A DNA stretch of 64,000 nt, from contig CAZRKS010000001.1 of assembly GCA_964600315.1 (NCBI GenBank), positions 7,078 to 71,077 on the forward strand, written 5' to 3'. The stretch comes from an uncultured Steroidobacteraceae bacterium. Lineage in GTDB: Bacteria > Pseudomonadota > Gammaproteobacteria > Steroidobacterales > Steroidobacteraceae. Under the pieces are notes generated by a model, which was not told the DNA's origin, ran no database searches, and was given only the letters and a program-made list of their open reading frames with translations. Of the stretch, positions 20,964 through 47,299 are shown one piece after another (positions within the stretch are counted from its first letter, which is position 1; each line of letters starts with the position of its first letter). The position numbers and the translations under genes were made by a program.

Positions 20964-20983
20964 TCGCGTCCAAACGGACGATG
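20964..20983. promoter_or_regulatory. operator-like site TCGCGTCC-AAAC-GGACGATG
   Basis: Exact 13-mer at 20971-20983, in the 143-nt divergent region between the P450 (start 20904) and the OYE-type reductase (start 21048). 13/16. Confidence 0.55.
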
Positions 20984-24028: not shown

Positions 24029-24048
24029 CATCGCACAAACGGACGATG
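24029..24048. promoter_or_regulatory. operator-like site CATCGCAC-AAAC-GGACGATG
   Basis: Exact 13-mer at 24036-24048, in the divergent region between the SDR (start 23966) and the membrane protein (start 24145). 14/16. Confidence 0.55.
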
Positions 24049-24671: not shown

Positions 24672-25697
24672 ATGCGGGTGATGGTCACCGGATCGACCGG
24701 CTACGTCGGCGCCTTCAGCGTCAAGGCGCTCATCGACGCCGGCCACCGGGTCCGGTTGCTCGTGCGCGATCCCGCCAAGGCGGGAACCGTGCTTCGTGCC
24801 GTCGGGGTCAGCGGCCGGCTGGACTGCGTGCAGGGTGACATGACCGACGAAGCGTCGGTGCTGGAGGCCCTGAAGGGCTGCGACGCGGCACTGCACTGCG
24901 CGGCCGTGGTCAGCACGCACGCGTCGCGCGAGCAGGAAATGCTGCGCGCCAATCCGCAGGGTGCCGAGTTCGTGATCGGCCACGCCGTGCGCCTGGGGCT
25001 CGATCCGGTCATCCATTGCTCCAGCGTCACCGCCCTGCTGCGGCCGGGCGCCACGGTCCTCACGGCCGACATGCCGCCGGGCACGCTCACGCGCGGCTAC
25101 GCAGGTTCCAAGATCATCTGCGAGCAGTACGTGCGGACGCTGCAGAGCACGGGCGCGCCGGTCGTCATCACCTACCCCGGCAGCGTGACGGGTCCGGCTG
25201 CGTGGAGCATCCTCGGTGAAGCGACGCTGGGCGTGGCGGCGACCGTCCGCGCGGGCTTGCTGCCGACGCGCGAGGCGGCCCTTTCGATCATCGACGCGCG
25301 CGACCTCGGGGCCATACACGCCGCACTGATGACCCGCGGACGCGGCCCACGACGGATCCTGTGCGGCGGCCACTACCTGACTCCGGTGGACATCGCGCAG
25401 CGACTGCAGAATCTCACGGGGCGAAAGTTCCGCGTGCTGCCCGTGTCCGCCGCGCTGCTGCGCGGCGCTGGCCTGCTGTCCGACGCCGTTTCGCGCGCGC
25501 TGCCGCGGCTCGCCAACCCGTTCACGCACGAGGCCATGGTCTATTTCACGCAGTTACCGCCGACCGACGACTCCGCGGTGTGGCGTGAACTCGGCCTGCG
25601 TTACCGCGATGTCGAGGACACGCTGCGCGCGTCCATCCTCGCGGCGCGGGCCGCCGGTCTGCTGAGCGACGCTCAGATCGGCAAGCTGGCGTCTTGA
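24672..25697 (+). CDS. NAD-dependent epimerase/dehydratase-family (extended SDR, 3beta-HSD-like) protein
   Basis: Trimmed to ATG 24672, with GGGAGA upstream. MRVMVTGSTGYVGAF Rossmann motif and YAGSK catalytic motif. 341 aa. Confidence 0.8.
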   Translation: MRVMVTGSTGYVGAFSVKALIDAGHRVRLLVRDPAKAGTVLRAVGVSGRLDCVQGDMTDEASVLEALKGCDAALHCAAVVSTHASREQEMLRANPQGAEFVIGHAVRLGLDPVIHCSSVTALLRPGATVLTADMPPGTLTRGYAGSKIICEQYVRTLQSTGAPVVITYPGSVTGPAAWSILGEATLGVAATVRAGLLPTREAALSIIDARDLGAIHAALMTRGRGPRRILCGGHYLTPVDIAQRLQNLTGRKFRVLPVSAALLRGAGLLSDAVSRALPRLANPFTHEAMVYFTQLPPTDDSAVWRELGLRYRDVEDTLRASILAARAAGLLSDAQIGKLAS

Positions 25698-26692
25698 CGA
25701 TCCCGCCGCGGCCGTGCCGCGGCGCGCGGTTTCTGCCGGGACCGTCCCCGGGTCCGACCGGACCCTGTCGCACGCACCTTGCGCTTCCCCCCGGCCGTCG
25801 CCGCCTGCGTGGTTTCCCGCATGAATTCGCCCATCCGGGCGATTGCCGCCTTGGTCTCGGGCAGGAACGGCACCATGTGCCACACGTGCGGCACCTGGTC
25901 CCAGACCTCGACCCTGAAGTCCACGCCCTGCGCGACGGCGCGCTTCGCGACGCGACGCGTGTCGTCGAGCAGCACCTCGGTGCTGCCCACTTGCGCGAGG
26001 ACCGGCGGCAGCCCGTGAAAGTCGCCGAACACCGGCGAGACCAGCGGGTTGTCGTGCAGCGCGTCGTCGAGATAGAGCGCGTTCATCATCTTCATGCTCT
26101 TCGGCGACAGCATCGGGTCGCGACGCGCATTCGAGAACCGCGACTCGCCGCCGAAACTGAAGTCGGTGAACGGCGAGATCACGACCGCGCCGGCCGGCAT
26201 CGGGTCGCCGTCGTCCCGCAGCGCCAGCAGGGTCGACAGCGTCAGCCCGCCTCCGGCGGAGTCGCCGGCAATCACGATGCTCGCGGGGTCGGTCCCGAGG
26301 TCCAGCAGGTGGCGATAGGCCGCCAGGCAGTCCTCGAGCCCGGCCGGAAACGGGTGTTCGGGCGCCAGCCGGTAATGCACCAGCAGCGCCCGCGATCCTG
26401 CCGCCCGGCACACCCGTGCCACCATCAGCGGCACCTGCCCCGACGCCGGCAACATGAAGCCGCCGCCCGGCAGGTAGAGCAGGGTCATCGCATCGCTCGA
26501 CTCCCGCGTCCGTATCCATTCGCCGCGGAAGGCGTGAGCCGCCACCGGGGACATCTTCACTCCGGCCGGCAACCTCGGCCTGCCCCGCCCTTCGACGAAG
26601 CGCCGCGTCTCCTCGAGCGTGCTGTTGGTCATCATCCGCTTGACCGTGAAGTGCAGCACCAGGTTCAGGACCTTTGCCTGCCAGCTCGCCAT
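25673..26692 (-). CDS. alpha/beta hydrolase, HSL-family lipase/esterase with basic C-terminal tail
   Basis: 339 aa. LPGGGFM oxyanion region and GDSAGG nucleophile elbow. The last ~40 aa are Arg/Lys-rich (GGKRKVRATGSGRTRGRSRQKPRAAARPRRDR). The 3' end overlaps the convergent gene by 25 nt. Confidence 0.8.
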   Translation of the reverse strand: MASWQAKVLNLVLHFTVKRMMTNSTLEETRRFVEGRGRPRLPAGVKMSPVAAHAFRGEWIRTRESSDAMTLLYLPGGGFMLPASGQVPLMVARVCRAAGSRALLVHYRLAPEHPFPAGLEDCLAAYRHLLDLGTDPASIVIAGDSAGGGLTLSTLLALRDDGDPMPAGAVVISPFTDFSFGGESRFSNARRDPMLSPKSMKMMNALYLDDALHDNPLVSPVFGDFHGLPPVLAQVGSTEVLLDDTRRVAKRAVAQGVDFRVEVWDQVPHVWHMVPFLPETKAAIARMGEFMRETTQAATAGGKRKVRATGSGRTRGRSRQKPRAAARPRRDRQDASLPI

Positions 26693-26699: not shown

Positions 26700-27689
26700 T
26701 CACTTCGCCGGCGCCGTGCGCGCGGCTGACGGTCGCCGGGCCGGTCGCCTCAGCTTGCGGAAAGTCTCAAGCAGCTTCGCCGTGCGCGTCCCTGCCTGCC
26801 GGTAAGGCCGGCCCGCCGCCTTGAACGCCTCGGACCAGATATGCGCCAACTGCCGCGTGATGTCGCCTGACATCCTGGAATTGCGCGTGCAAGCCTCGCG
26901 GACCACCACGACGCGTCGGCGAAACGACTCGGCCCGACGCAGGTCGCGCATGAATTCCAGCTTGGCGCCGAGCGACTCGCGCTGGTGCCGCGACAAGCTC
27001 GCACTCGCCTTCGTCGCTCCGGCGAGCAACGCGCTGACGGCCTCGATCGCCGCGGCCGCCTCGACCCAGTTGGAGCGCGCGGCCTGCCGGCGACCGGCAT
27101 GGGGCGCAATGTCCTCGTGCCCGCGGAGCACCTCGAATTCGGCCGTGGCTTCCTCCCCGAACACCGGGTCCAGGATCGGCTTCATGTTCGCATCGATCTC
27201 GGCCCAGTCCGCGGACCTGAGCACCTGCCGGGCACGCGGGAAGGCCCGGAGTTCCTCGACGTCCATGTGCCGCCGCAGATGGCCGATATAGCGGTGTGCG
27301 CTCTTGCGCAGCGCGAAGGTGTCGGCGGTCCTGGGATCGGCACGGCAGCGGTCGATCAGCGCGAGCAGCTCGGCGCCCCGCGCCAGGATCTGCACGTGGT
27401 CCGCGAGCAAGTGCTCCACCTGCGGCGCGGAGGGCGGATCGCGCTCCACGAGCTTGCGGAAGACGAGGTCCTCCTTGGGGTGGTGGAAGCGGTCCGGGTA
27501 GTTGGTCATGTAGCGCATGACGCCGTGCATGACCTCGTAGTCGGGCTGCTTGCGCTGGTTGAGCAGGGCCACCTGCTTCTCCAGCAGCCTGAACACCCGC
27601 AGCTGGTAATGGTGCTCTTCGACCAGGGCCCGCAGGATGTCGGGCACCTCCAGAGCCTGTTTGCCACGTCCTCGTGCTGGGGTCGCCAT
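26700..27689 (-). CDS. hemerythrin-like domain protein with helical, basic C-terminal extension
   Basis: 329 aa, GAGGGAGA SD. The N-terminal ~190 aa carry His/Glu motifs typical of hemerythrin/HHE domains (EEHH, FHHPKED, LLADH, HLRRHMDVEE). The C-terminal ~140 aa match no family I recognise and end in KLRRPARRPSAARTAPAK. Confidence 0.75.
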   Translation of the reverse strand: MATPARGRGKQALEVPDILRALVEEHHYQLRVFRLLEKQVALLNQRKQPDYEVMHGVMRYMTNYPDRFHHPKEDLVFRKLVERDPPSAPQVEHLLADHVQILARGAELLALIDRCRADPRTADTFALRKSAHRYIGHLRRHMDVEELRAFPRARQVLRSADWAEIDANMKPILDPVFGEEATAEFEVLRGHEDIAPHAGRRQAARSNWVEAAAAIEAVSALLAGATKASASLSRHQRESLGAKLEFMRDLRRAESFRRRVVVVREACTRNSRMSGDITRQLAHIWSEAFKAAGRPYRQAGTRTAKLLETFRKLRRPARRPSAARTAPAK

Positions 27690-27716: not shown

Positions 27717-28175
27717 TCAGCCGCGGGTGCTCCGGCGCCTGCCCGCTGGCTTCCTGTTGACCGGGCGCGTCCCCGCGGCCCGCCGTTGCGGTTCGGCGCG
27801 CGCGAGCAGGCGATCGACCTTGTCGCGCAGCTCGGCCATGTCCTCGCCGGTCGGCACGCCCAGGCGCATCAAGACCGCCATGACCCGCTCGTCGAACACG
27901 CCCTGCAATCGCCCTTGGGACGGCAAGCCCATCATTCTGCTCGGCGACCCGGTCCAGTCACTCCAGACCTTGCGGGCCACCTCGTGCAGTTCCGGCTCCA
28001 GCCTGCGGCCTTCTGCGACGAGGGTCCTGAAGTCCGCCCGGGCCCGGTTCCTGTCGGCCCCGTTGGCACGGTTCAGGGACGCCAGCCCGGCGAGGACGAC
28101 GTCGTGGGACGACTCCCGGACGCGCGAAAGCCAGGCGTCGGATTCGGCCTTCGTGCGGATCTTTCGGCTCGGCAT
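27717..28175 (-). CDS. phasin-like granule-associated protein (PhaI/PhaF N-domain type)
   Basis: 152 aa, GGAGAAATC SD. VVLAGLASLNRA...FRTLVAEGRRLE...VFDERVMAVLMRLGVPTGEDMAELRDKVDRL matches the pattern I recall for Pseudomonas PhaI/PhaF (WLAGLGAY...FDxRVxxxLxRLGxPSxxDxxxL). Basic tail. Confidence 0.7.
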   Translation of the reverse strand: MPSRKIRTKAESDAWLSRVRESSHDVVLAGLASLNRANGADRNRARADFRTLVAEGRRLEPELHEVARKVWSDWTGSPSRMMGLPSQGRLQGVFDERVMAVLMRLGVPTGEDMAELRDKVDRLLARAEPQRRAAGTRPVNRKPAGRRRSTRG

Positions 28176-28244: not shown

Positions 28245-28937
28245 TCAGGTACTTCCCGCAAGCTGCGGCAGGTAGCGGCGCGCCACGCGCCGGAACTCCT
28301 CCTGCTTCGGGCCTCGAAGGTAAGGGGTGACCAGCGACATCACCTGGAAGACTCCTTGCGAGAGCGCGTCGTCGTCGACCAGGGCCGGTCCGGCACCCAC
28401 CGGGCGCTGCAGGGCTCGAAAGTTCAGCCAGTAGGTCGTCAAGAGCGAGATGTTGGTCGCCAGCGCGCGCGCCTCGTCCGGCGTCGCATCGAGCGAGCCG
28501 GAGGTGACGAGCGCCCGGCAGTAGGCGCTCAGGCGGGAAACGCCGGACTCGAGACCGCGCAGGAAGCGCCGGCGCAGCACTGGATACGCCGAGCACAGTT
28601 CGCTCAGGTCGCGGTGAATGAACTGGTAGTCCTGGATCACCTCGAACGACAGGTGCAACAGCAGCCACAGGTCGTCGACAGCCTGCCGGTAGCCGGCGTC
28701 GTCGCCGGTGACCTCCGCGACGGCGCCCTGGTAGCGCTCGAACAGCGCCATGACGATGTCTTCCTTGTGGCGGAAGTGATAGTAGAGGTTGCCCGGGCTG
28801 ATCCCGGCCGCATCGGCGACGTGATTGGTGGTGACGTGCGGCACGCCTCGTTCGTTGAACAGGGCCAGCGCCGCCGCCAGGATGCGCTCGCGGGTCTGGG
28901 TCGCTCCGCGCCTCGCGGCAGGCTCGCGCGGCTTCAC
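28245..28937 (-). CDS. TetR/AcrR-family transcriptional regulator
   Basis: GTG start 28937, overlapping the WS/DGAT stop (GTGA). HTH segment RERILAAALALFNERGVPHVTTNHVADAAGISPGNLYYHF. Confidence 0.85.
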   Translation of the reverse strand: MKPREPAARRGATQTRERILAAALALFNERGVPHVTTNHVADAAGISPGNLYYHFRHKEDIVMALFERYQGAVAEVTGDDAGYRQAVDDLWLLLHLSFEVIQDYQFIHRDLSELCSAYPVLRRRFLRGLESGVSRLSAYCRALVTSGSLDATPDEARALATNISLLTTYWLNFRALQRPVGAGPALVDDDALSQGVFQVMSLVTPYLRGPKQEEFRRVARRYLPQLAGST

Positions 28938-30433
28938 GCGCGGGCCCGTCGCTTCGCTGCCTTGCGTGGTGTCGCGGCGCGGGGCGACCTGAGGCCCATG
29001 GCCTTCTCGAGGATCGCGAGTTCCTCGCCGGCATACACGGCGATCCGCTGCGGGCTCGGGCAGAGATCGGGACAGGCCAGGATGCCCATGTCCAGGCTGG
29101 CGCCGAAATTGCTCACCGTGATGTTCAGCGCCTGGCCCGCCAGCAGCAGCGAAGTCGCATACATCGCCTCGAGCCGCGCGCCGTTGACGTACTGAGTCTC
29201 GCGCGGTCCGGGCACGTTGGAGATCACGAGGTTGGCATTGAGCACCTTGTGCGCGAACGTCGTCTTCGCCGCGAGAATCTGCGGGATCATCGCCAGCTGG
29301 GTGTAATTCTGGTAAGTGTCCGCGTCGAGCTCGTGCATGAGCCCCTTGTTGGCGCGGCTCGAGGCAACGACGGCCAGCAGGCGTCGCCGGGGGTTGGCGA
29401 TTTCGGTTCCGAGCGACACCAGGATCTGGCCGACCGCATTGCCGCTGGCCGCGTCATCGGCGCGCTCGCGCGCCACCGGGCAGGCGGCGATCAGCGGCTT
29501 CTCCGGCAGTGCACGCTGCTCCTTCAGGTAGCGGCGCAACGCGCCGCCACAGACGGCCAGCAGGACCTCGTTCACCGTGGCGCCGCCGGGCACGGCCGCG
29601 CCGATCGCCTTCATGCGATCGATCGACAGCGACACCGTGCCGAGCCGCCGGCGCGCGGTCAGCGTGCCGTTCAGGATCGTCGCCGGCGCCGAATACGGAG
29701 CGATCTTGCCCCCACCGGATTTGCCGAGGCTCAGCTCGCCCACCTTCTGCAGCGCCGTGCCCCAGGAGGCGAGCGCCTGCAGGGTGCTCGTCTGCGGGAC
29801 CGGCACCTTCTTTTTGGCCGGTGCTTTCGCGGCGCGGGCGCGCAACTGCTTCAGGTCGACCGCCCAGACCGGCGGCATCCCTCGCGCCGCGGGATCGGTC
29901 GAGCGGATGTACCGGCTGAGTTCCATGCCCCGCTTGCCGTCGAACTGCGAGTGGTGGAGCTTGGTGTAGATCGCGAAGCGCCCGCCCTCCAGCCCCTCGA
30001 TCAGGTGCATCTCCCACAGCGGGCGGCTGCGGTCGAGACGGTTCACGTGCAGGCGCGCAACGAGTTCGCCGAGTTCACGCTGGCCGCCGGGACGCGGCAG
30101 GGCGTGCAGGTAGATGTGTTCGTCGACGTTCACCTTGTCGAGCTTGGCCCAGGCCCGGAACGGCTTGGGTTTGCCGCCGCCGAGCACGCGTGGCCGCAGC
30201 TTGCCCAGCAGCGACTTGCGCTTCGGCTCCGGTGCGACCGTCACGAGCTTGTAGTTGAAAGGCTCGGCCCGCACCGGCGACTTGCGCAGGTAGGCGTGCA
30301 GCTGCTGGAGGTAGTCGCGTCCCGCCCCCTCCGGCAAATCGTAGATCTCCAGTCCGCCGATGTGCGTCGGCGCCGCGACAGTGTCGGAGTCGAGGAAATA
30401 TTCGTCCTGCCGGTTCAGTCGTTGGAAGGCCAT
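28934..30433 (-). CDS. wax ester synthase/acyl-CoA:diacylglycerol acyltransferase (WS/DGAT), paralog 1
   Basis: 499 aa. Active-site HHxxxDG motif (KLHHSQFDGKRG) and N-terminal APTHIGGL typical of WS/DGAT. Basic C-terminal tail. Confidence 0.9.
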   Translation of the reverse strand: MAFQRLNRQDEYFLDSDTVAAPTHIGGLEIYDLPEGAGRDYLQQLHAYLRKSPVRAEPFNYKLVTVAPEPKRKSLLGKLRPRVLGGGKPKPFRAWAKLDKVNVDEHIYLHALPRPGGQRELGELVARLHVNRLDRSRPLWEMHLIEGLEGGRFAIYTKLHHSQFDGKRGMELSRYIRSTDPAARGMPPVWAVDLKQLRARAAKAPAKKKVPVPQTSTLQALASWGTALQKVGELSLGKSGGGKIAPYSAPATILNGTLTARRRLGTVSLSIDRMKAIGAAVPGGATVNEVLLAVCGGALRRYLKEQRALPEKPLIAACPVARERADDAASGNAVGQILVSLGTEIANPRRRLLAVVASSRANKGLMHELDADTYQNYTQLAMIPQILAAKTTFAHKVLNANLVISNVPGPRETQYVNGARLEAMYATSLLLAGQALNITVSNFGASLDMGILACPDLCPSPQRIAVYAGEELAILEKAMGLRSPRAATPRKAAKRRARA

Positions 30434-30445
30434 GGCCTCGCCCCC

Positions 30446-31846
30446 CTATGGCTTCGAAACACGTGCATGGGCACCGCGCGCCGCGCGACCCCTCGCGCGC
30501 GGCTTCAGCTCGAGCGCCGCCTCCAGCTCACGCAGCGCGACCGGCAGCTGCAGCGCCAGGTACTGCACGCTCGGCAGCGTGTCGGGGCAGGCGACGAGGC
30601 CGAAATGCAGGTGCTTGCGATAGCTCAGCACCGTGATGTTGAGCCGCTGGTCCCCCGACAACACTGACAGCGGGTACATGCCGTCGACCTCGGCGCCCCG
30701 GAAATACAGTCGTTGCATCGGTCCCGGCACGTTGGAGATCGTTAGGTTGGTGAACGCCGCCCGATCGGGATCCGTGTTCTCGCGCTTCGGGACCATCATC
30801 ATGAGCTGCATGCCGACGGAATTGACCGCCTTGTGCAGCGACATGGGCATGACCTGGAATTCCTCTTTGGCCGCGCGCATTTCCTTGCGAATGGCCAGCA
30901 ATCGCTTGCGGGGGTCGCGCTGCTGCGTCGCGATCGCGGTGTGGATGCTGGCGACGGAACTGCCGTGCGTGTCGCCCGCGGGGCGCGGCAGCGCGACCGG
31001 CACCGTGGCGAGCAGGCTGTCCTTCGGGATGCGGTCACATTTCGCGAGGTAAGCGCGCAGCGCACCGCTGCAGACCGCCAGCACGACGTCGTTGACCGTG
31101 GCGTTCGCCGCACGGGCGACGGCCTTGATGCGCGGCAGGCTCAAGTCCTGCGTGGCGAGGCGCCGCCGGCTGGTGCTGCTCCCGTTCAGCACGCACCGGG
31201 GTCCGCGCGGGATCAGCGGCACGTCGCGCGAACGCGCCCGCGATCCGCCGACGTTGCGCAGCAACTCCGCGAAGAACCGGCGCCAGTCCTCGTCGGCCGA
31301 CTGCGTCGCCCGGACGGTCACGCGGGCCCTGCGCGGTGTCGACCACGGCGGCAGACTCGGGCTGCGCGGCGACTCGCCGAGGGCGCCCGCGACCTTGTTG
31401 ATCAGCCCGATCCCGTCGCCCAGGGAGTGGTGGACCTTGAGGTACAGCGCGAAACGGTCGGGCCGCAGGCCTTCGATCAGCGTGCACTCCCACAGCGGGC
31501 GCGAACGCTCGAGGGGCAGCGAATGCAGGCGCGAGATCGCAAGCCCCAACTCGCGCTGGCCGCCCGGCCACGGCAACGCCTCGTGGCGCAGGTGGTACTC
31601 GAGGTCGACGTGTTCGGCCGCCTCCAGCGCGGGCGAGTACTTGCCGAGGCCCCGCTTCTCCACGAGCCGCAGGTTGAACGGCTCGCTGTCCACGGCGCAG
31701 CGCGCGAGCTTCGCGTGCAGTTCCTGCATGAAGTCGGGCGACGCCCCCTTCGGCAGCCTGCAGGTCATCAGGAGCCCGATGTGCATCGGGGCCTCGGGGG
31801 TTTCGAGTCGCAGGAACAAGGCGTCCTGCGTGCTGAGCTTGACCAT
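30446..31846 (-). CDS. WS/DGAT acyltransferase, paralog 2
   Basis: Trimmed to ATG 31846, with AGGAGAA upstream (MVKLSTQDALFLRLETPEAPMHIG). HHSLGDG motif. 466 aa. Confidence 0.9.
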   Translation of the reverse strand: MVKLSTQDALFLRLETPEAPMHIGLLMTCRLPKGASPDFMQELHAKLARCAVDSEPFNLRLVEKRGLGKYSPALEAAEHVDLEYHLRHEALPWPGGQRELGLAISRLHSLPLERSRPLWECTLIEGLRPDRFALYLKVHHSLGDGIGLINKVAGALGESPRSPSLPPWSTPRRARVTVRATQSADEDWRRFFAELLRNVGGSRARSRDVPLIPRGPRCVLNGSSTSRRRLATQDLSLPRIKAVARAANATVNDVVLAVCSGALRAYLAKCDRIPKDSLLATVPVALPRPAGDTHGSSVASIHTAIATQQRDPRKRLLAIRKEMRAAKEEFQVMPMSLHKAVNSVGMQLMMMVPKRENTDPDRAAFTNLTISNVPGPMQRLYFRGAEVDGMYPLSVLSGDQRLNITVLSYRKHLHFGLVACPDTLPSVQYLALQLPVALRELEAALELKPRARGRAARGAHARVSKP

Positions 31847-31984
31847 CGGCTCTGATTCTCCTGCAGGGGCCGGTTCTGCCGCCGGCACTCGTGAGCGATG
31901 ACACGGCCGGGCCCGACCGTCGAGTCGGCGTTCCGGCCTCGCCAGCGTCGCAGGCAGGACTGCTGCGCTCATCCCCCGTTCAGA

Positions 31985-33469
31985 CTACCGGCGCCGCGCA
32001 GCGCCGCGTCCGGGGCTGGTCGGCCGGGCGGCCCGGCGCGAGCCTGAGCCGGTCGTACGCCGGCCGGCGAGCGCCCGCTCGAGTTCGTCGAGTGACTCCA
32101 GGATGAGCCCGCCGACCCGCCGCGGATCCGGGAGCAGATCCGGACAGACCAGCACGGCCACGTCGAGCATGTTCCGGCGGCTGATCACGGTGATGTTCAT
32201 CGCCTGTCCCGGCACGAGCAGCGACATCGGGTAGTCCGCCTCGATCAGGGCCCCGTTCGAATAGCGCTTCTCGCGCAGGCCCACGACGTTCGAGATCACG
32301 ACGTTGTGGGCGTGCGCCTTCTCGGCCCGGCCGAAAATCGTGAACAGGATGTAGGGCAGGCCGATCAGGCCCATGTAGATGTTGAGCGCCGTGGGCGACG
32401 GCAGGCCGTGGATCAGTTCCTTCGCGTGCTGGCTCGACGAGCGCACGGCCTCGAAGCGCCGCACGGGATCCTTGAGATGCGTCGCGAGCGAAACCTGGCC
32501 GGACGCAATCGCATTGCCGCCGGCCTGGCCGCCGGCCCGGGTCACGGCGACGATCATGTTGGCGACCAGCGCCTCCTTCGGCAACGCGTGCCGCCCGAGC
32601 AGATAGCGGCGGAGCGCGGCGCCGCAGATGGCCATCACGACGTCGTTGATCGTCGCGCCCTGGGACCTGGCCAGCCGCTTGAGGCGCGACAGCGGGAGCC
32701 GCGTGACACCGATCTCGCGCTGGGCCGTGACCTTGCCATTGAGGATGCTGTCGGGTGCGCGGTAGATCGGCACCAGGCCGCCGTCGGTCGGATGCCGATA
32801 CGAGTCGATCACCCGGCCGAACGCGGTGCCGAGTTCGCTCACGACCTCGACGCCGTCGCTCACGCCGGCGCGGCCGCGTTCCAGCCAGCCGCGCGCGGGT
32901 TCCGCGCTCCGCCCGCCCCGCTTCGTCGCCGCCGCTTCGCTCCTCTCCTCCATGGTCACGCCCCAGAACGGCAGCAGCCCGCGTTCGTCGGGGTCCGCGC
33001 TGGTGGTCTCGCGGTAGAGCCGCATGCCCCACTGGCCATCGACGTACGCGTGATGGATGCGCGAGAAGGTTGCGTACCGGTTGCCAGGGAGGCCCTCGAT
33101 CAGGTGGTGCTCCCACAGCGGCCGCGAGCGGTCGAGCAGCCCGGAGTTGAGGCGCGAAACGAGTTCGAACAGTTCGTTCTCCGTCCCCGGCCACGGCAAC
33201 GCGTGATGGAAGATGTGCCTGCGAAGGTCGACCGCGTCGAGGACCTTCCAGCCAGGGATACCCGGCAGCGGCCCGCTCGCCGTGTACAGGTAGTTGAAAG
33301 GCGCGCCGTTCGCAGGGATGTTCATCAGCTGATCGCGCAGCTTGCGCACGTAGTCGCGACCCGCGCCGGGCGGCTTGCGCAGGATCTGCACGCCGGCGAC
33401 GTGCATCGGCGTCTCGGGCGACTCCATCGTCAGCATCATGATGTCCATCGGATTCATCGACTTCAGCAT
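31985..33469 (-). CDS. WS/DGAT acyltransferase, paralog 3
   Basis: Trimmed to ATG 33469 (MLKSMNPMDIMMLTMESPETPMHVAG). HHAYVDG motif. 494 aa. Close paralog of the next gene. Confidence 0.9.
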   Translation of the reverse strand: MLKSMNPMDIMMLTMESPETPMHVAGVQILRKPPGAGRDYVRKLRDQLMNIPANGAPFNYLYTASGPLPGIPGWKVLDAVDLRRHIFHHALPWPGTENELFELVSRLNSGLLDRSRPLWEHHLIEGLPGNRYATFSRIHHAYVDGQWGMRLYRETTSADPDERGLLPFWGVTMEERSEAAATKRGGRSAEPARGWLERGRAGVSDGVEVVSELGTAFGRVIDSYRHPTDGGLVPIYRAPDSILNGKVTAQREIGVTRLPLSRLKRLARSQGATINDVVMAICGAALRRYLLGRHALPKEALVANMIVAVTRAGGQAGGNAIASGQVSLATHLKDPVRRFEAVRSSSQHAKELIHGLPSPTALNIYMGLIGLPYILFTIFGRAEKAHAHNVVISNVVGLREKRYSNGALIEADYPMSLLVPGQAMNITVISRRNMLDVAVLVCPDLLPDPRRVGGLILESLDELERALAGRRTTGSGSRRAARPTSPGRGAARRR

Positions 33470-33530
33470 CGCTGCAAACCTCCCGCTGCCTGACCTCTTC
33501 CCCGGCTCCTCGCAACACCGGCACCCGATC

Positions 33531-34946
33531 CTACCGCTTCCTGGCGAGCGCCCGTTCGAGCTCGTCCAGCGATTCCGCGATGGCCTCGCCGACACGCTGC
33601 GGACCGGGGACCACGCTCGGGCAGACGAGCACGGCCACGTCGAGCATGTTCGCGCGGCTGATGACCGTGATGTTCATCGCCTGGCCCGGCACGAGCAGCG
33701 ACATCGGGTAGTCGGACTCGACCAGCGCCCCGTTGACGTAGCGCCTTTCGCGAAGGCCGATGAGGTTGGAGATGACGACGTTCTGGGCCCGCGCCCTGTC
33801 GGCCCGGCCCAGGATCGTGTAGAGCGCGAACGGCACGCCGGTCAGGCCCATATAGAGGTTGAGCGCCGTCGGCGAGGCCATGCCGTGGATGTGGTCCTTC
33901 GCGCGCCGGCTCGACGAGCGCACGGCCTCGAAACGCTTGACCGGGTCCCTGAGGTGGGTCGCCAGCGACACCTGCGCGGCCGCAACGGCGTTGCCGGCGC
34001 TCGCGCCCTGCTGACGTGCGACGGCCACGATCATGCCCGCGATCAGCGCCTGCTTGGGCAGGGCGTCGCGCTCCAGCAGGTAGCGCCGCAGGCCGCCGCC
34101 GCAGATGGCCAGCACGACGTCGTTGACCGTCGCACCGTGCGCCCGGGCCAGCCGCTTGATGCGCGCCAGCTCGAATTGCGTGACGCCGATCTCGCGTCGC
34201 GCGGTGACCTTGCTGTTCAGGATGCAGAGCGGCGCCTGGTAGATCGGCACGAGGCCGCCGTCCGTCGGATGCCGGCGCGCTTCGAACAGGTGGCCGAATG
34301 CGGCGCCCAGTTCGGTCACGGCCTCGACGCCTTGATCGAGGCCGGCGCGGCCCCGTTCCAGCCAGCCCGGCGTGGGCGGCCCGCCGCGCGGGGAAGCCCT
34401 CTTCGGCGTCGCAGCGGGCTTCTCGTGGATTTCCACGGCCCAGTACGGCAGCAGCCCGCGGACGTTCGGGTCCGGACTGGTGGTCGCCTCGTGCAGCTTC
34501 ATGCCCCACTGGCCGTCGATCAGCGCGTGGTGCACGCGCATGAACGTGGCATAGCGCTGCCCCGCGAGACCCTCGATCAGGTGGTATTCCCAGAGGGGCC
34601 GCGAGCGATCGAGGTGACTCGAGTTGAGGCGCGAGACGAGCTCGAACAGTTCCGCCTGCGTCCCTGGCCAGGGCAGCGCGTGGTGGAAGACGTGCTCCCG
34701 GAGGTCGACCTCGTCCAGCACTTGCCACGCGGGCACGCCCGGCACCAGCCCGCTGGCGGCGTACCGATAGTTGAAGGGGGCGGCGCGCGCCGGGATGCGC
34801 AGCAGCTGGTCGCGCAGCTTGCGCACGTAATCGCGGCCTGCGCCGCGGGGTTTGCGCAGGATTTGCACGCCACCGATGTGCATCGGCGTTTCCGGTGACT
34901 CCATCGCCAGCAGCATGGCGTCCAGCAGGTTCATCGATTTCAGCAT
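33531..34946 (-). CDS. WS/DGAT acyltransferase, paralog 4
   Basis: 471 aa (MLKSMNLLDAMLLAMESPETPMHIGG). HHALIDG motif. First gene of the minus-strand string. Confidence 0.9.
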   Translation of the reverse strand: MLKSMNLLDAMLLAMESPETPMHIGGVQILRKPRGAGRDYVRKLRDQLLRIPARAAPFNYRYAASGLVPGVPAWQVLDEVDLREHVFHHALPWPGTQAELFELVSRLNSSHLDRSRPLWEYHLIEGLAGQRYATFMRVHHALIDGQWGMKLHEATTSPDPNVRGLLPYWAVEIHEKPAATPKRASPRGGPPTPGWLERGRAGLDQGVEAVTELGAAFGHLFEARRHPTDGGLVPIYQAPLCILNSKVTARREIGVTQFELARIKRLARAHGATVNDVVLAICGGGLRRYLLERDALPKQALIAGMIVAVARQQGASAGNAVAAAQVSLATHLRDPVKRFEAVRSSSRRAKDHIHGMASPTALNLYMGLTGVPFALYTILGRADRARAQNVVISNLIGLRERRYVNGALVESDYPMSLLVPGQAMNITVISRANMLDVAVLVCPSVVPGPQRVGEAIAESLDELERALARKR

Positions 34947-35057: not shown

Positions 35058-35077
35058 CGTCGTCCGAAGGGACGATG
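35058..35077. promoter_or_regulatory. near-perfect palindromic operator CGTCGTCC-GAAG-GGACGATG
   Basis: 15/16 arm positions are symmetric. Lies in the 171-nt divergent region between WS/DGAT paralog 4 (start 34946) and the SDR (start 35118). Confidence 0.6.
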
Positions 35078-35117: not shown

Positions 35118-35966
35118 GTGGAGCACCTCGTGAACCTCCAGAGCCCACCCGTCGTCCTCGTCACCGGCGCTAGCCGCGGCATCGGCGCGGCCACCGCACT
35201 GGCCTTCGCCCGGAGCGGCTGGCGCGTCGCGATCACGGCGCGAACCCAAAGTGAGGGACAGCGGCTGGACCACCAGCTGCGCCGCCCCGACGGCACGGTC
35301 ATGGCGGGCAGCCTGGCGTCCACCGCCGCGGCCGTGAGTGAGGCCGGCGCGGAGGCATTCGCATATCCGATGGATCTCATGGATTCGGGTTCGCTCGACG
35401 CCGCCTTCGATGCGGTGCTCGCGCACTTCGGCCGCATCGACGTGCTGCTGAACAACGCCGTCTACCAGGACAGGGAGTCCAACGCGATGCTCGCCGACCT
35501 GACCGACGCGGCGCTCGAGCGCACGCTGCGGGGCAATGTGATCGCGCCGTTCCACCTGGTACGCCGCGCCCTGCCGGTCATGGTGGCGCAGGGCGGCGGC
35601 CAGATCGTCAACGTCAGCTCGGGCGCCGGCCAGCACGACCCGCCCGTGCCGGCCGACCAGGGCGCCTGGGGCTATGCCTACGGCGCCTCCAAGGCGGCCC
35701 TGGCACGGCTCTCCGGCTGCATCAACGTGGAATATGGCCGCCAGGGCGTACGCGCGTACACGGTCAATCCGGGCCTGGTCAGCACCGAGGCGGTGACGGC
35801 CACGCTCGGCGACGGAGGCGTGCTGGAACAGCGCTATGGCGCGATGACGCCGCAAGCGATCGCCGGCGCCCTCCTCTGGCTCGTCACCGACCCCGAAGCC
35901 GCGACGCTCGCCGCCCGTCCGTCGATGATCGACCTGCAGGACCTGATTCGAGAGGGCCGCGTCTAG
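35118..35966 (+). CDS. short-chain dehydrogenase/reductase
   Basis: VVLVTGASRGIGAATA, NNAV and YGASK motifs. Start is GTG at 35118, or the in-frame GTG at 35130. Confidence 0.8.
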   Translation: MEHLVNLQSPPVVLVTGASRGIGAATALAFARSGWRVAITARTQSEGQRLDHQLRRPDGTVMAGSLASTAAAVSEAGAEAFAYPMDLMDSGSLDAAFDAVLAHFGRIDVLLNNAVYQDRESNAMLADLTDAALERTLRGNVIAPFHLVRRALPVMVAQGGGQIVNVSSGAGQHDPPVPADQGAWGYAYGASKAALARLSGCINVEYGRQGVRAYTVNPGLVSTEAVTATLGDGGVLEQRYGAMTPQAIAGALLWLVTDPEAATLAARPSMIDLQDLIREGRV

Positions 35967-37573
35967 GCGCCGGCCCGCTCCGCCGCCACCTTCTTCGCCC
36001 AGCCGTAGTCGGCCTTGCCGGCGGGCGTGCGCTTGACCTCTTCGACCAGCACGACCGCGCGCGGCACTTTGTAGCCCGCGAGCTTCTCGCGGCAGACCCG
36101 GTCGAAATCGGCGCGGTCGAAGACGGCCCCCGGCAACAGCGCGACCACGGCCACGACCTTCTGGCCCCAGCGCTCGTCGGGCACTCCGACCACCAGCACG
36201 TCGCCGACGGGCGGGTAGCGGCGCACGGCCTCCTCGACCTCCTCCGGGAAGACCTTCTCGCCGCCGGTGTTGATGCACGACGAGCCGCGACCGAGCAGGA
36301 CGTAGGTGCCGTCGTCGTCGATGCGGACGCGGTCGCCGGTGACGACCCAGATGCGGTTGTCGATGCTGACGAAGGTTTCCGCGCTCTTCTTCGCGTCGCC
36401 GTAATAGCCGATCGGTGTGAAACCGGTGCGCGCCAGCGTGCCCTCGGTGCCCGGGGCATCGACGATGCGGCCGTCGTCGCCGATCACGGCGAGGTCCGGG
36501 CGCGGGTCGATCACCATGAAGCCGCCGGAGTGGTCGACGCGGTCGCGGCCGCCGATGACCCCCGATTCCGACGAACCCATGCCGTTGCTCACGATGATGT
36601 TCGGCAGCAGGGCCTTCAGGCGCGCCTGGGCCTGCTGCGAGAACACCGCCCCGCCGTTGCCGAAGGTGATCAGGTACGACAGGTTCCAGCGTCCGGGGTT
36701 CTCCTCGAGCGCACGGATCAGCGGCATGGCCATCGCGTCCCCGACCACCTGCACGATGTTGACGCCGTCGCGCACCACGAGATCCCAGACGTGCTCCGGA
36801 TCGAAGCGCGGCTCGTCGTTCACCACGACCGTGTAGCCGGCGAGCAAGCTGATCAGCGTCGCCCACATCGCCGCGCCATGCATCATCGGCGCGACCGGGA
36901 AGAAGGACAGCGGCGGACCGTGCGGGACGAACTCCTCCAGTTCCTCCGGACGCTGGATCGGCGGGCGGCGGAAGAAGATGCCGCCGCCCCCGAGCGCCGC
37001 CATGAAGATCGACTTGTGCGGCCACATCACGCCTTTCGGCATGCCCGTCGTGCCGCCCGTGCACAGCATGTAGATGTCGTTGTCCGACCGGTCCGGGTCG
37101 TCGAGCTGCGGCTCGCCGGAGGCGATCACGGCGGCAAAGTCCTCGCGGCCGGCCGGCGGGACGCCGTCGCCGACGCGCAGCAGCGTCTGGAGCGTCGGCA
37201 CGCGCGGGACCGTCGCGGCCACCTCGGCTTCGAAGTCGGATCCGTACACCAGCGCCTTGAGATCCAGCATGCCGAACAGGTAGGCGAGTTCCTCGCTGAC
37301 GTAGCGGTAGTTCACGTTGACCGGCACGGCGCCGATCTTGCAGCAGCCGAAGAACGTCTCGAGGTACTCGACCGAGTTGTAGAGCTGGATGCCGACGTGG
37401 TCACCGCGCCGCAACCCGCGCGCGCGCAGCGCCGTGCCGAGCCGGTTGGCGCGCTCGTCGAGTTCGCGGTACGTCAGTGCATGGTCGCCGCAGCGGAACG
37501 CGATGCGGTCCGGCACGCAGCCGGCCACGATCTCGAACAGGTCGGCGAGATTGTAGGTTCGCGAACGGCTCAT
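35963..37573 (-). CDS. acyl-CoA synthetase (AMP-forming, ANL superfamily)
   Basis: Trimmed to ATG 37573, with GGGAGA upstream (MSRSRTYNLADLFEIVAG). Motifs MLCTGGTTGMPKGV and TGDRVRIDDDG, with C-terminal PAGKADY. 536 aa. Confidence 0.85.
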   Translation of the reverse strand: MSRSRTYNLADLFEIVAGCVPDRIAFRCGDHALTYRELDERANRLGTALRARGLRRGDHVGIQLYNSVEYLETFFGCCKIGAVPVNVNYRYVSEELAYLFGMLDLKALVYGSDFEAEVAATVPRVPTLQTLLRVGDGVPPAGREDFAAVIASGEPQLDDPDRSDNDIYMLCTGGTTGMPKGVMWPHKSIFMAALGGGGIFFRRPPIQRPEELEEFVPHGPPLSFFPVAPMMHGAAMWATLISLLAGYTVVVNDEPRFDPEHVWDLVVRDGVNIVQVVGDAMAMPLIRALEENPGRWNLSYLITFGNGGAVFSQQAQARLKALLPNIIVSNGMGSSESGVIGGRDRVDHSGGFMVIDPRPDLAVIGDDGRIVDAPGTEGTLARTGFTPIGYYGDAKKSAETFVSIDNRIWVVTGDRVRIDDDGTYVLLGRGSSCINTGGEKVFPEEVEEAVRRYPPVGDVLVVGVPDERWGQKVVAVVALLPGAVFDRADFDRVCREKLAGYKVPRAVVLVEEVKRTPAGKADYGWAKKVAAERAGA

Positions 37574-37675
37574 CGTCGGGTCTCCCTGAATTTCACTCCC
37601 GGCCGGGACGCGCCGCGCGCAGGCCACGCCAAGGGTTCGTGGCCTCGGATGTTCTGCCCCCTCCTGCCCTCCCCT

Positions 37676-37687
37676 CATCGTCCAAAC
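37676..37687. promoter_or_regulatory. isolated half-site CATCGTCC-AAAC
   Basis: Perfect left arm plus AAAC spacer, but no recognisable right arm. Lies in the divergent region between the acyl-CoA synthetase (37573) and the FAR (37842). Confidence 0.2.
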
Positions 37688-37841
37688 AGGGTAGCGGAGG
37701 GCGTCGGCCGGCGTGTCCCGCACCGCAGCACGACCGGGCCGACGGGCGCCTGCGGCTAGTCCGGTTGAGTGATTTGTCCGTCGACGGGGGAAACTAATGT
37801 GCGTTACTCGAAGATCCAAGCGACAGGCAGGGGAGACAATC

Positions 37842-39833
37842 GTGCAGTACTTCGTCACCGGCGGAACCGGATTCATCGGTCGTTTCCTGATCGGCAAGCT
37901 GCTCGAGCGCGGCGGCACCGTGCACGTGCTCGTCCGGGCCGGCTCCGGGCAACGCTTCGAGCAGTTGCAGGCGCGCTATCCGTCGGCAGGCGACCGCCTG
38001 CAGGCCGTGACCGGCGACCTGGCGCGGCCACGCCTCGGCCTCGCGGACCCCGACGTCGAGCGCCTGCGCGGGCAGATCGGCCACTTCTTCCACGTCGGCG
38101 CGATCTACGACATGAACGCCGACGCCGCGCGCCAGCAGGCGGCCAACGTCGACGGCACACGCCACGCCGTGCAGTGTGCCGAGGCCCTCGAGGCGCGTTG
38201 CTTCCAGCACGTCAGCTCCGTCGCCGTGGCAGGCCTGTACGACGGCAGCTTCAGCGAGGACATGTTCGAGGAGGCAGGCGAACTGCCGCATCCCTACTTC
38301 CAGACCAAGCACGACTCGGAGGCCGTGGTGCGCCGGGAGTGCAGGCTGCCCTGGCGCATCTACCGCCCGGCATCGGTGGTGGGACATTCCGAAACCGGCG
38401 AGATCGACAAGATCGACGGCCCCTACTACTCGTTCAAGCTGCTGCAGAAGATCCGGCGGCTGCTGCCGCCATGGTTCCCGCTGATCGGCATCGATTCCGG
38501 CAAGTTCAACATCGTGCCCGTGGACTACGTCGCGGCGGCGATGGACTGGCTCGCACACCAGGACGGCCTCGACGGCGAGTGCTTCCATCTCGTCAACCCC
38601 GAGCACTACAGCAGCGGCGAGATGCTCAACATCTTCGCGGACGCCGCGCACGCCCCGCGTTTCGCGCTCCGGCTCGACAGCAAGGTGTTCTCGTTCATGC
38701 CGTCGGGACTCGCCGCCACGCTCGGCAAGCTGCCGCCCGTCAAGCGCCTGATGTCGTCGCTGCTGGCCGGGGCCGGCCTGCCGTCGGGCGCGGCGGCGCT
38801 GTTCAACTGGAACACCCGCTTCGAAAGCCGCATGACCCGCAAGGCGCTCAAGGGCAGCGGCATCGAGGTACCGAAGCTCGACAGCTACGCCCACCGGCTC
38901 TGGGATTACTGGGAACGCAACCTCGACCCGGACCTGTTCATCGACCACTCGCTCGAAGGCAACGTGCGCGGCAAGGTCGTCATCGTCACCGGCGGCGGCT
39001 CCGGCATCGGCCTGGCCGCGGCCCGCCGCCTGGCCGGCGCCGGGGCGATCCTCGTGATCGCCGGGCGCACGCTCGACAAGCTCGAGGAAGCGAAGCAGTC
39101 GATCGAGGCCGCCGGCGGCATCTGCCACCTCTATCAGGTCGACCTGGCCGACCTTGCCGCGGCCGACCGCTTCATCGACCAGGTGCTCGCCGACCATGGC
39201 CGCGTCGACGTCCTGATCAACAATGCCGGCCGCTCGATCCGCCGCGCGGTGGAGCATTCCTACGACCGCTTCCACGACTACGAGCGCACCATCCAGATCA
39301 ACTACTTCGCGCCGCTGCGGCTCGCGCTGCGCGTGCTGCCCGGCATGAGCGAGCGACGCTCGGGCCACGTCATCAACGTCTCGTCCATGGGCGTGCTCGG
39401 CCCGCCGGCGCGCTTCTCCGCGTACATCGCGTCGAAGTCCGCGCTCGAGGGCTGGACGCGCTGCGCCGAGGTCGAGTACGCGAACCGCAACGTGCACTTC
39501 ACGAACATCAACATGCCGCTGGTGCGCACGCCGATGATCAGCCCGACCAAGGTGTACGAGTACGCGCCGACGCTCACCCCCGAGGAGGCGACCGAGCTGG
39601 TGGTCGACGCCGTGATCAACCGGCCGAGCCGCGTCGCGACCGACATGGGCCGCTTCATGCAGATCTGGAACCTCCTCTCGCCCAAGTCCTATGCGAACTC
39701 CATGAACGGCATCTTCCGCATGTTCGACGAGACGCTGGCGGCGCCGGCCGCCAGGGGCGCGCCGGCCCTGCCTGCGGAGCCCACCAGCGAGCAGGTCGCG
39801 ATCGCCTCGCTGATGAAGGGGGTCCATTACTGA
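37842..39833 (+). CDS. two-domain fatty acyl-CoA reductase (N-terminal thioester-reductase-type domain plus C-terminal SDR)
   Basis: Trimmed to GTG 37842, 5 nt after GGGGAGA. N-domain FVTGGTGFIG...YFQTK. C-domain VTGGGSGIG...NNAG...YIASK. The architecture matches what I recall for Marinobacter-type FAR enzymes. Confidence 0.8.
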   Translation: MQYFVTGGTGFIGRFLIGKLLERGGTVHVLVRAGSGQRFEQLQARYPSAGDRLQAVTGDLARPRLGLADPDVERLRGQIGHFFHVGAIYDMNADAARQQAANVDGTRHAVQCAEALEARCFQHVSSVAVAGLYDGSFSEDMFEEAGELPHPYFQTKHDSEAVVRRECRLPWRIYRPASVVGHSETGEIDKIDGPYYSFKLLQKIRRLLPPWFPLIGIDSGKFNIVPVDYVAAAMDWLAHQDGLDGECFHLVNPEHYSSGEMLNIFADAAHAPRFALRLDSKVFSFMPSGLAATLGKLPPVKRLMSSLLAGAGLPSGAAALFNWNTRFESRMTRKALKGSGIEVPKLDSYAHRLWDYWERNLDPDLFIDHSLEGNVRGKVVIVTGGGSGIGLAAARRLAGAGAILVIAGRTLDKLEEAKQSIEAAGGICHLYQVDLADLAAADRFIDQVLADHGRVDVLINNAGRSIRRAVEHSYDRFHDYERTIQINYFAPLRLALRVLPGMSERRSGHVINVSSMGVLGPPARFSAYIASKSALEGWTRCAEVEYANRNVHFTNINMPLVRTPMISPTKVYEYAPTLTPEEATELVVDAVINRPSRVATDMGRFMQIWNLLSPKSYANSMNGIFRMFDETLAAPAARGAPALPAEPTSEQVAIASLMKGVHY

Positions 39834-47279: not shown

Positions 47280-47299
47280 CCTCGTCCGAACGGACAACC
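47280..47299. promoter_or_regulatory. operator-like site CCTCGTCC-GAAC-GGACAACC
   Basis: 12/16. Sits between the TetR stop (47322) and the SDR start (47176), directly abutting a hairpin. Confidence 0.45.

Follow-up and report, generated by a model that had tools for sequence, protein, structure and literature searches.

Four tandem WS/DGAT acyltransferase genes of three old clades in a putative wax-ester/triacylglycerol storage locus of an uncultured Steroidobacteraceae bacterium

Introduction

In bacteria, the storage of wax esters and triacylglycerol (TAG) depends on the WS/DGATs (wax ester synthases/acyl-CoA:diacylglycerol acyltransferases) as key enzymes; they have found wide use in lipid biotechnology, and most of what is known of them comes from a few enzymes of Acinetobacter, Marinobacter and Actinobacteria. 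Acinetobacter has one main WS/DGAT, the Marinobacter paralogues are dispersed, and those of Actinobacteria are mostly scattered with occasional adjacent pairs. In a stretch of 64,000 nucleotides from an uncultured Steroidobacteraceae bacterium (assembly GCA_964600315.1, contig CAZRKS010000001.1, positions 7,078 to 71,077 of the forward strand; hereafter the window, in whose numbering coordinates are given), four consecutive, co-directional and full-length WS/DGAT genes occupy 28934-34946 on the minus strand, each with an intact HHxxxDG catalytic motif. Such a string raises the question of whether one storage enzyme was recently amplified in place or whether isoforms with separate tasks have been kept together, and of which esters they would make. 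The explanation favoured here, with reasonable confidence, is that the four genes form the synthase block of a conserved locus for the storage and turnover of wax esters/TAG, with synthase isoforms that are not redundant.

Results and discussion

Family membership and fold of the four proteins

In the order of their transcription the genes, all on the minus strand, are W1 (33531-34946; 471 aa, HHALIDG at residue 139), W2 (31985-33469; 494 aa, HHAYVDG), W3 (30446-31846; 466 aa, HHSLGDG) and W4 (28934-30433; 499 aa, HHSQFDG at residue 160). For W2 and W3, the ATGs that align with those of orthologues and are preceded by a Shine-Dalgarno sequence were taken as starts, the W2 ATG aligning with that of W1 as well. 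Each protein covers the whole PF03007 model with 181-212 bits (E 1e-53 to 1e-62; Pfam gathering cut-off 23.6) and the whole PF06974 model with 91-102 bits (gathering cut-off 20.7), while the scores on NCBIfam TIGR02946 are 369.5, 353.7, 379.2 and 366.8 bits for W1 to W4 (cut-off 309.95). The HHxxxDG motif is present in 26/26 aligned proteins of the window and related loci as well as in two solved enzymes, Ma1 of Marinobacter aquaeolei VT8 (6CHJ) and AtfA/AbWSD1 of Acinetobacter baylyi ADP1 (7NXG). Two further motifs, PLW and SNVPGP, are conserved features of WS/DGATs and no formal membership criteria; the former occurs in all four proteins, and the latter is intact in W3 and W4 and reads SNLIGL in W1 and SNVVGL in W2.

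By sequence, W3 matches 6CHJ with an E value of 2e-77 and 7NXG with 9e-72. The AlphaFold model of W1, the one protein modelled (pLDDT 88.2, pTM 0.87), retrieved the same two structures as top Foldseek matches (E 1e-40 to 1e-43, target-normalised TM 0.85-0.86), followed by condensation domains of nonribosomal peptide synthetases, and W1 is predicted to share the fold of the solved WS/DGATs with its two subdomains like those of chloramphenicol acetyltransferase (CAT) and condensation domains. Judged by these profiles and motifs, all four proteins are bona fide members of the WS/DGAT family. An earlier reading of the letters of the window, made with no database search (the sequence-only reading), had described four tandem genes of these lengths with these four active-site motifs, and the profile matches and motifs confirm it. 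No further WS/DGAT gene was found in the window, and scans of its whole length for Rfam families and tRNAs gave no match.

An identical W1, placed between a short-chain dehydrogenase/reductase (SDR) gene and the start of W2, was recovered in two independent SRA assemblies (L001, L002). The W1-W2 junction is therefore genuine, and the idea that the fourth copy is an assembly artefact is ruled out by this SDR-W1-W2 arrangement.

Age of the paralogues and selection

The array was compared with ten related loci from Steroidobacteraceae metagenome-assembled genomes (MAGs) and metagenome contigs (L003, L018-L023, L026, L064, L084), drawn from L003, from the contigs of six W4 orthologues and from a metagenome scan. 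The closest among GTDB species representatives is L003, a Steroidobacteraceae MAG with synteny over at least 21 kb and neighbouring proteins 84-88% identical, which has three WS/DGAT genes against four in the window. A neighbour-joining tree (442 columns, 200 bootstraps) divides the proteins into three orthologue clades, namely A with W1, W2 and their orthologues (100% support), B with W3 and its orthologues (90%) and C with W4 and its orthologues (99%), and each related genome contributes one gene per clade wherever its recovery sufficed. W1 and W2 are 70.7% identical in protein and 77% in nucleotide sequence, and all other pairs among the four are 34-40% identical. The W3 orthologues of seven loci are 51-86% identical to it, and the metagenomic orthologues of W4 form a dense series from 87% down to 54% identity, after which identity falls sharply to 44% or less.

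The sequence-only reading had called its "paralogs 3 and 4" obviously recent duplicates on the strength of a shared N-terminus beginning MLKSMN. The proteins that share it are those of 471 and 494 aa, the first and second of its own list and third and fourth only along the plus strand, and the recent date does not stand. The nucleotide identity of W1 and W2 is uniform along the gene at 69-88%, with no elevated and no gene-conversion tract; their synonymous divergence (dS) is about 0.52, to be compared with 0.34-0.87 between window genes and their orthologues in L021, L022 or L003; and the W2 orthologues L022_a (77.7%) and L003_a (74.3%) group with W2 at 100% bootstrap, leaving W1 outside. These three observations exclude a recent duplication or gene conversion, and because of them the W1/W2 duplication appears to be about as old as the splits from L021, L022 and L003 and to have preceded the divergence from the species with orthologues of 72-78% identity. 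The idea that W1 branches outside because it evolved faster found no support, the distance of W1 to the outgroups L020_b and L004_a being no greater than that of W2. The lone clade A genes of the relatives seem to be what differential survival left behind, and the array as a whole is best described, from these comparisons, as three old orthologue clades with no recent local amplification.

The ratio of nonsynonymous to synonymous divergence (dN/dS, NG86 method) lies between 0.18 and 0.44 in every orthologue pair (0.26-0.44 in clade A, 0.19-0.30 in B and 0.18-0.26 in C), values that are approximate at such divergences and with a third-position GC content (GC3) near 90%. Selection appears to preserve all four genes, and constraint is weakest in clade A.

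Each clade has fixed features of its own. In clade C the HHSQFDG motif is invariant, PTH replaces the N-terminal PMH, a basic insertion of about 22 aa follows the PFNY motif, and the C-termini are rich in Lys, Ala and Arg, in several orthologues long enough to match the histone-H1-like HC2 family (PF07382). In clade B the DG of the active-site motif follows a small residue (G/S/A), and an insertion is present in the region of Ma1 L356-A360. In clade A the third variable residue of HHxxxDG is I/V/M, and both prolines of SNVPGP are lost in every orthologue, giving SN(V/L/M)(V/I/P/H)G(L/V), whereas the motif is intact in B, C, 6CHJ and 7NXG; the W1 model is confident even so. At the one pocket position compared, that of Ma1 A360 and AtfA G355, W1 to W4 have L, L, M and L; in Ma1 the substitution A360I favours smaller alcohols (PMC10236719). 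These fixed differences near the catalytic centre would fit different substrate preferences of the clades, without saying which.

In W4 the clade C insertion lies at residues ~70-92, and basic insertions or tails were seen in the orthologues P0014, P0022, P0024, P0030, P0036, P0040, P0051, L019_c and L023_c. By analogy, the basic tail is reminiscent of the one with which the phasin PhaF binds DNA, and it may be a tether to the nucleoid or the droplet.

The same data bear on a simpler account, in which the copies are redundant and the array raises the dose of wax/TAG synthase, being kept by chance or for expression level. Promiscuity is a trait of the characterised WS/DGATs (background in 10.1101/775916), and relaxed constraint would suit both the varying copy number of clade A (two here, one elsewhere, degraded in L018) and its dN/dS, the highest of the three. 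Yet the clades have little more than a third of their residues in common, each has been kept as a separate lineage while its orthologues diverged to 51-57% identity, and the clade-specific residues fixed beside the catalytic histidines (HHSQFDG in C, G/S/A in B, I/V/M in A) are joined by clade-specific changes elsewhere (PTH for PMH in C, the altered NVPGP in A). So long a persistence under purifying selection is not expected of redundant copies, and this account is considered improbable. The sub-functionalisation that the sequence-only reading had proposed agrees better with the long side-by-side retention of three clades under purifying selection, which is the pattern expected of non-redundant isoforms.

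Gene order in related loci and rarity of the tandem

The order of the clades is A-A-B-C in the window, A-B-C in L003, L018, L021 and L022 (with the degraded A copy in L018), and B-A-C in L020, L026 and L064. The two most distant genomes, L019 and L023, have B-C plus a fourth WS/DGAT type on the divergent strand, and the clade A gene of L023 is found on a different contig (L005) of that MAG. Two copies of clade A, among the related loci, are seen in the window only, W1 being the extra one. Because the three clades recur side by side across the related loci, the three-clade array is, as far as these sequences tell, ancestral to the whole lineage and not peculiar to this genome. The fixed core of the locus is the clade C gene with the genes downstream of it, and the mobile part is clade A.

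The clade A gene of L018 (7517-8563) is fragmented, with a C-terminal piece of 187 aa in the gene table and the N-terminal part in other frames; it is a pseudogene or the product of assembly frameshifts, and it fits the view of clade A as the dispensable member. The fourth type is very divergent and, in the most distant relatives, transcribed away from the B-C array. It pairs with a PHA_gran_rgn (PF09650) gene in L019 (6370-8285) and L023 (6409-8286), both on the minus strand, and in L064 (6903-7619), which is a second link of WS/DGATs to "PHA granule" (polyhydroxyalkanoate granule) families.

The frequency of such tandems was estimated from 87 unrelated WS/DGAT loci, 12 from distant genomes and 75 from metagenomes and all outside this clade, a sample that is skewed to relatives of W3 and includes many short contigs (flanks of 1.5 kb or more on each side in 49/87). 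A second WS/DGAT gene lay nearby in two of them, both times on the opposite strand, and no co-directional tandem was found in any of the 87. Five Rhodococcus loci and one Mycobacteriaceae locus each had a single copy within 10 kb. Since 0/87 unrelated loci are tandem and the related loci share the arrangement, the array is unusual in general and typical of this clade, and the statement of the sequence-only reading that WS/DGAT paralogues are usually dispersed is backed by this sample. A study of Antarctic and Subantarctic sediment metagenomes gives one to three ws/dgat genes as usual for Gram-negative bacteria, with exceptions of up to 17 (PMC10351704).

The genes attached to the array

Downstream of W4 and on the same strand follow four genes, coding for a TetR-family regulator (28245-28937; PF00440 and PF13972), a phasin-like protein of 152 aa (27717-28175; PF05597 with 49.1 bits, gathering cut-off 28.8), a hemerythrin-domain protein of 329 aa (26700-27689; PF01814) and an esterase/lipase of the hormone-sensitive lipase (HSL) family with 339 aa and a GDSAG motif (25673-26692; PF07859, E 1e-50), for which the closest NCBIfam models are HSL subfamilies, every one below its cut-off. 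The GTG start of the TetR gene overlaps the TGA of W4 by 4 nt (GTGA), as had been read from the sequence before. From W1 down to the lipase the gaps are 61, 138, 12, -4, 69, 27 and 7 nt, and the string would be co-transcribed as one operon in which TetR is translationally coupled to W4.

The order of clade C gene, TetR, phasin, hemerythrin-domain protein and lipase is kept in all ten related loci, save for the phasin in L026. The TetR gene follows the clade C gene in 10/10, and a phasin homologue occupies the same position in 9/10, none being detected in L026; PF05597 is also assigned to the orthologues in L019-L023. The hemerythrin-domain protein is 35-70% identical in the same position of every related locus and may have a part in the function of the locus, and the lipase is 68-88% identical across all of them. 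The full TetR-phasin-hemerythrin-lipase module was found in 0/87 unrelated WS/DGAT loci. The phasin-like protein is a candidate lipid-body coat, and by its family it would sit on lipid bodies.

Upstream of W1 lie a divergently transcribed classical SDR oxidoreductase gene (35118-35966, plus; PF00106), a gene for an acyl-CoA synthetase (35963-37573, minus; AMP-binding and AMP-binding_C, 536 aa from the ATG at 37573, Shine-Dalgarno sequence present) and one for a candidate two-domain fatty acyl-CoA reductase (FAR) of 678 aa (37797-39833, plus), with PF07993 ("male sterility", NAD_binding_4) in its N-terminal and PF00106 in its C-terminal part. The synthetase reaches 641 bits on NF005863/PRK07798 (cut-off 543) and the reductase 891 bits on NF005539/PRK07201 (cut-off 549), with GxTGFIG and YxxxK motifs in its translation; a solved homologue covering the entire reductase was not found. 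The SDR is 80-87% identical in the same position of L003, L018, L020, L021 and L022, the synthetase 73-77% identical in L003, L018 and L020, and the reductase 85-87% identical beside the array of L003, L021 and L022. All three genes are upstream in L003, L021 and L022, and synthetase and SDR in L018 and L020. The characterised alcohol-forming reductases Maqu_2507 and Rv3391/FCR1 are two-domain proteins of roughly 650 aa (PMC3522743), and the reductase of the window has, by prediction, this architecture, as a wax-ester pathway requires. An EthD-like gene is inserted between reductase and synthetase in L021 (3176-3862), L022 (3778-4176) and L018 (3479-4204), where the window has a spacer of 223 nt (37574-37796).

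Because the reductase and the acyl-CoA synthetase adjoin the array and the lipase/phasin module follows it, wax esters are the first reading of its product. The sequence-only interpretation, sound on family and rarity and mistaken on recent duplication, had overlooked both this context and the larger operon with TetR, phasin, hemerythrin-domain protein and lipase.

A candidate operator in the SDR/W1 intergenic region

In the intergenic region between the SDR gene and W1 lies a 16-bp palindrome of the form TCGTCC-N4-GGACGA (TCGTCCCTTCGGACGA, 35060-35075, without strand), which precedes the W1 ATG by 113-128 nt and the SDR start by about 45 nt. A block of 24 nt around it is unchanged in eight loci despite diverged flanks, and of the 11 occurrences of its exact arms in 1.3 Mb of fetched loci, 10 fall within loci of this clade. 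Related palindromes give 12 strand-hits in the window where 3.2 are expected. Near-copies, most of them in divergent intergenic regions, are at 20966-20981, 24031-24046, 47282-47297 and 16006-16021 and at 18631-18646 of L018; their settings include a cytochrome P450/old yellow enzyme (OYE)-type flavoenzyme pair (20966-20981, also in L018), SDR/hypothetical and TetR/SDR pairs, and the region upstream of another SDR gene (47282-47297). The reading as an RNA hairpin is weaker (z = -2.4). The palindrome resembles the operator of a TetR-type regulator, one that would control a small local regulon including the WS/DGAT operon.

A palindrome with the same arms (TCGTCCAAGCGGACGA) is also present in an unrelated low-GC metagenome contig (L083, 2597-2612), where it lies in an AT-rich spacer and precedes a lone WS/DGAT gene by about 65-80 nt; the product of that gene is 38% identical to W3. 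A TetR gene beside it was looked for, and the divergent neighbour proved to be a methyltransferase gene instead.

The proposed pathway and the points against it

Taken together, the locus could work as follows. The acyl-CoA synthetase would produce acyl-CoA, part of which the two-domain reductase would convert to fatty alcohol. The WS/DGATs, with the second His of HHxxxDG as general base, would move the acyl group onto the alcohol to give wax ester, and they probably acylate diacylglycerol too, giving TAG. The ester would gather in lipid bodies coated by the phasin-like protein, from which the HSL-type lipase would remobilise it, and the TetR regulator would repress the operon, probably through the SDR/W1 palindrome, until a lipid or acyl-CoA ligand frees it.

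Several observations weigh against this scheme or parts of it. The assignment of the palindrome to the W4-linked TetR is a guess, because the window has three TetR genes (28245-28937, 47322-48113 and 55740-56456) and palindromes of the same type also precede other genes in it; moreover, in the distant loci L019 and L023 the TetR gene is present and no such site lies by the array. A scan of 25.4-38 kb gave no promoter-like sites and terminator-like sites at chance level, so the operon structure is read from gene spacing alone. The glycerol-3-phosphate acyltransferase (GPAT), acylglycerol-phosphate acyltransferase (AGPAT) and phosphatidate phosphatase (PAP) of the Kennedy pathway are absent nearby, which leaves TAG synthesis without contextual support. 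Because both SNVPGP prolines are absent from clade A, its activity or role may differ from that of the other clades. The approximate nature of the dN/dS ratios given above belongs here as well, and no report of neutral-lipid accumulation in Steroidobacter or Steroidobacteraceae was found in the literature searched.

Esters could also be made for purposes other than storage, as envelope or secreted waxes or as detoxification esters of alcohols from hydrocarbon, terpenoid or steroid breakdown, with phasin, hemerythrin-domain protein and lipase unconnected to lipid bodies. A Baeyer-Villiger monooxygenase with an esterase, a sulfatase, a beta-lactamase-fold hydrolase and many SDRs are encoded nearby and could yield assorted alcohols, and the wax esters of Mycobacterium tuberculosis affect cell-wall permeability (PMC3522743). 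The fixed place of the phasin-family and lipase genes in the string, with the phasin undetected in L026, suits instead an intracellular inclusion that is built and mobilised, and the gene tables of the related loci show no export or transporter gene conserved in the module. Such a non-storage role is thought very improbable.

Steroid- and lipid-catabolism-type genes around the array

The surroundings of the storage locus suggest another kind of acceptor. A set of genes resembling a steroid C/D-ring (HIP) degradation cluster lies at 618-10004 on the minus strand, its assignment to steroids being drawn from gene content; it comprises an SDR, a thiolase, two acyl-CoA dehydrogenases, an enoyl-CoA hydratase, an NMO-family reductase, a lipid-transfer-type thiolase and the alpha and beta subunits of a CoA-transferase, of which the thiolase (NF005865), the enoyl-CoA hydratase (NF005925) and the lipid-transfer-type thiolase (NF004715) score above cut-off. 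Two paralogous sets of ethylbenzene-dehydrogenase-like (EBDH-like) enzymes of the type II dimethyl sulfoxide (DMSO) reductase family are at 48316-53645 and 56407-61516, both on the minus strand. Both sets encode an alpha subunit of about 960-1000 aa together with a 4Fe-4S beta subunit; the first set adds a gamma subunit (EB_dh) and a chaperone like NarJ. In the PDB the best match is 2IVF (E 1e-171), with all matches below equivalog cut-offs, and the sets are candidates, on sequence, for hydroxylating steroid or alkyl side chains independently of oxygen. The label of steroid C25 dehydrogenase was dropped for them, membership of the EBDH-like type II DMSO-reductase group alone being shown at scores below those cut-offs. 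Paired acyl-CoA dehydrogenases are also present in the window, and the cytochrome P450 and a BaiCD/OYE-type flavoenzyme are encoded about 6 kb from the array and beside it in L018, L021 and L022 too. Genes for KshA_C-type Rieske oxygenases lie less than 10 kb from the array in L019, L020 and L023, with a KstD-like flavoprotein gene nearby in L020.

Sterol-degrading Actinobacteria and Gammaproteobacteria accumulate steryl esters; a search for homologues of known sterol acyltransferases found none, and suspicion falls on the WS/DGATs (Holert et al., 10.1101/775916); a later identification of the bacterial steryl-ester enzyme was not found in the literature searched. Because steroid-catabolism-type genes fill the window and WS/DGATs are published suspects, the sterol idea has a real basis, and the sterol acceptors that the sequence-only reading had thought possible are plausible as far as gene content goes. 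One or more clades would then be a synthase of steryl or steroid-alcohol esters, acylating the 3-beta-hydroxyl of sterols or hydroxylated steroid intermediates, by which excess steroid would be parked in lipid bodies, and the locus would be part of the surrounding steroid-catabolism island, with room for other paralogues making wax/TAG. In its favour are the C/D-ring-type set, the P450 and flavoenzyme and the two molybdoenzyme sets in the window, the KshA-type and KstD-like genes that flank the array in relatives, and the published suspicion. The sole link, on the other side, is proximity, and since these genomes appear crowded with genes of steroid and lipid catabolism, such adjacency may mean little. 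The most tightly linked genes (reductase, acyl-CoA synthetase, lipase and phasin) suit fatty-alcohol and acyl chemistry, and a weak point in the same direction is the bulky residue of all four proteins at the Ma1 A360 position, where isoleucine favours smaller alcohols (PMC10236719). On balance this is judged unlikely.

A stronger version makes one conserved clade the bacterial steryl-ester synthase and the whole locus a dedicated steroid-buffering lipid-droplet operon, and it is somewhat less likely still. Its best candidates would be clade A, which has lost SNVPGP, and clade C, with PTH, the invariant HHSQFDG and the basic insertion. The operon would have its own phasin-like coat, a hemerythrin-type sensor of O2, NO or iron, a hydrolase of steryl or wax esters and a TetR acting at TCGTCC-N4-GGACGA, an operator type that also stands before the P450/flavoenzyme and SDR genes.

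Comparison with known systems

The closest enzymes of known function, AtfA/AbWSD1 and Ma1, share the two domains, HHxxxDG, PLW and the fold with W1-W4 and differ from them in being just 33-38% identical, and in that the proteins of the window include clade A without the SNVPGP prolines, clade C with PTH and its ~22-aa basic insertion, and a bulky residue at the A360/G355 position. As in Marinobacter, a Maqu_2507-type two-domain reductase is at hand to supply the alcohol (PMC3522743). The arrangement in Acinetobacter and Marinobacter described above is different, three clades being joined here in one co-directional string with regulator, phasin and lipase.

In M. tuberculosis the HSL-family lipase LipY mobilises stored TAG. 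The tgs/atf systems of M. tuberculosis and Rhodococcus resemble the present one in their many isoforms with partly distinct roles and in an HSL-family lipase for mobilisation, and M. tuberculosis also has the two-domain reductase FCR1 (Rv3391) for wax esters (PMC3522743). Hosts of this type degrade sterols and store steryl esters (10.1101/775916). The locus of the window differs in holding the genes for synthesis, regulation, coating and mobilisation in one conserved string, and in belonging to a Gram-negative lineage.

An analogy may also be drawn with the medium-chain PHA cluster of Pseudomonas. That cluster, phaC1-phaZ-phaC2-phaD-phaF-phaI, combines synthase paralogues, a depolymerase, the TetR-family PhaD and phasins of PF05597, and in both cases paralogous synthases appear to be encoded together with a hydrolase, a TetR regulator and a PF05597 phasin. 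The synthases are unrelated, however (the condensation/CAT-like fold of WS/DGATs here against the alpha/beta-hydrolase fold of PhaC), the product would be a neutral lipid ester in place of a polyester, and the hemerythrin-domain gene is an addition of the present locus; no PhaD model was among the NCBIfam matches of its TetR protein. In the sediment metagenomes mentioned above, the available part of the report describes Maqu_2507-like reductase genes adjoining ws/dgat and, in Proteobacteria, phasin or PHA-system genes on ws/dgat scaffolds, which were read as PHA-related; tandem arrays and a TetR-phasin-hemerythrin-lipase string are not described in that part (PMC10351704).

The architecture of a three-clade tandem with TetR, phasin, hemerythrin-domain protein and lipase is described nowhere in the literature searched. 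The enzymes are ordinary members of a well-known family, and the modest novelty is the tandem of three old clades with the module attached to it, so that the storage explanation, if it alone is true, would be a tidy and unsurprising addition to that family. The interest of the locus is that a Gram-negative, probably steroid-degrading lineage from soil and water keeps three isoform classes together with reductase, regulator, phasin-like protein and lipase. It makes testable whether isoforms divide their labour by acceptor, whether phasins coat neutral-lipid bodies as they coat PHA granules, and which enzyme forms steryl esters in sterol-degrading bacteria.

Other genes of the window

A Baeyer-Villiger-type flavin monooxygenase, an SDR and an Abhydrolase_3 esterase are encoded in a row at 11201-14511 (minus). 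This row has the look of the classic route from ketone to ester to alcohol and acid, and the alcohols it released would be usable by WS/DGATs.

At 43565-46317 (minus) two tandem DUF1254/DUF1214 proteins adjoin a sulfatase, a beta-lactamase-fold hydrolase and an SDR, and the latter trio is kept beside the reductase gene in L003 and partly in L021 and L022.

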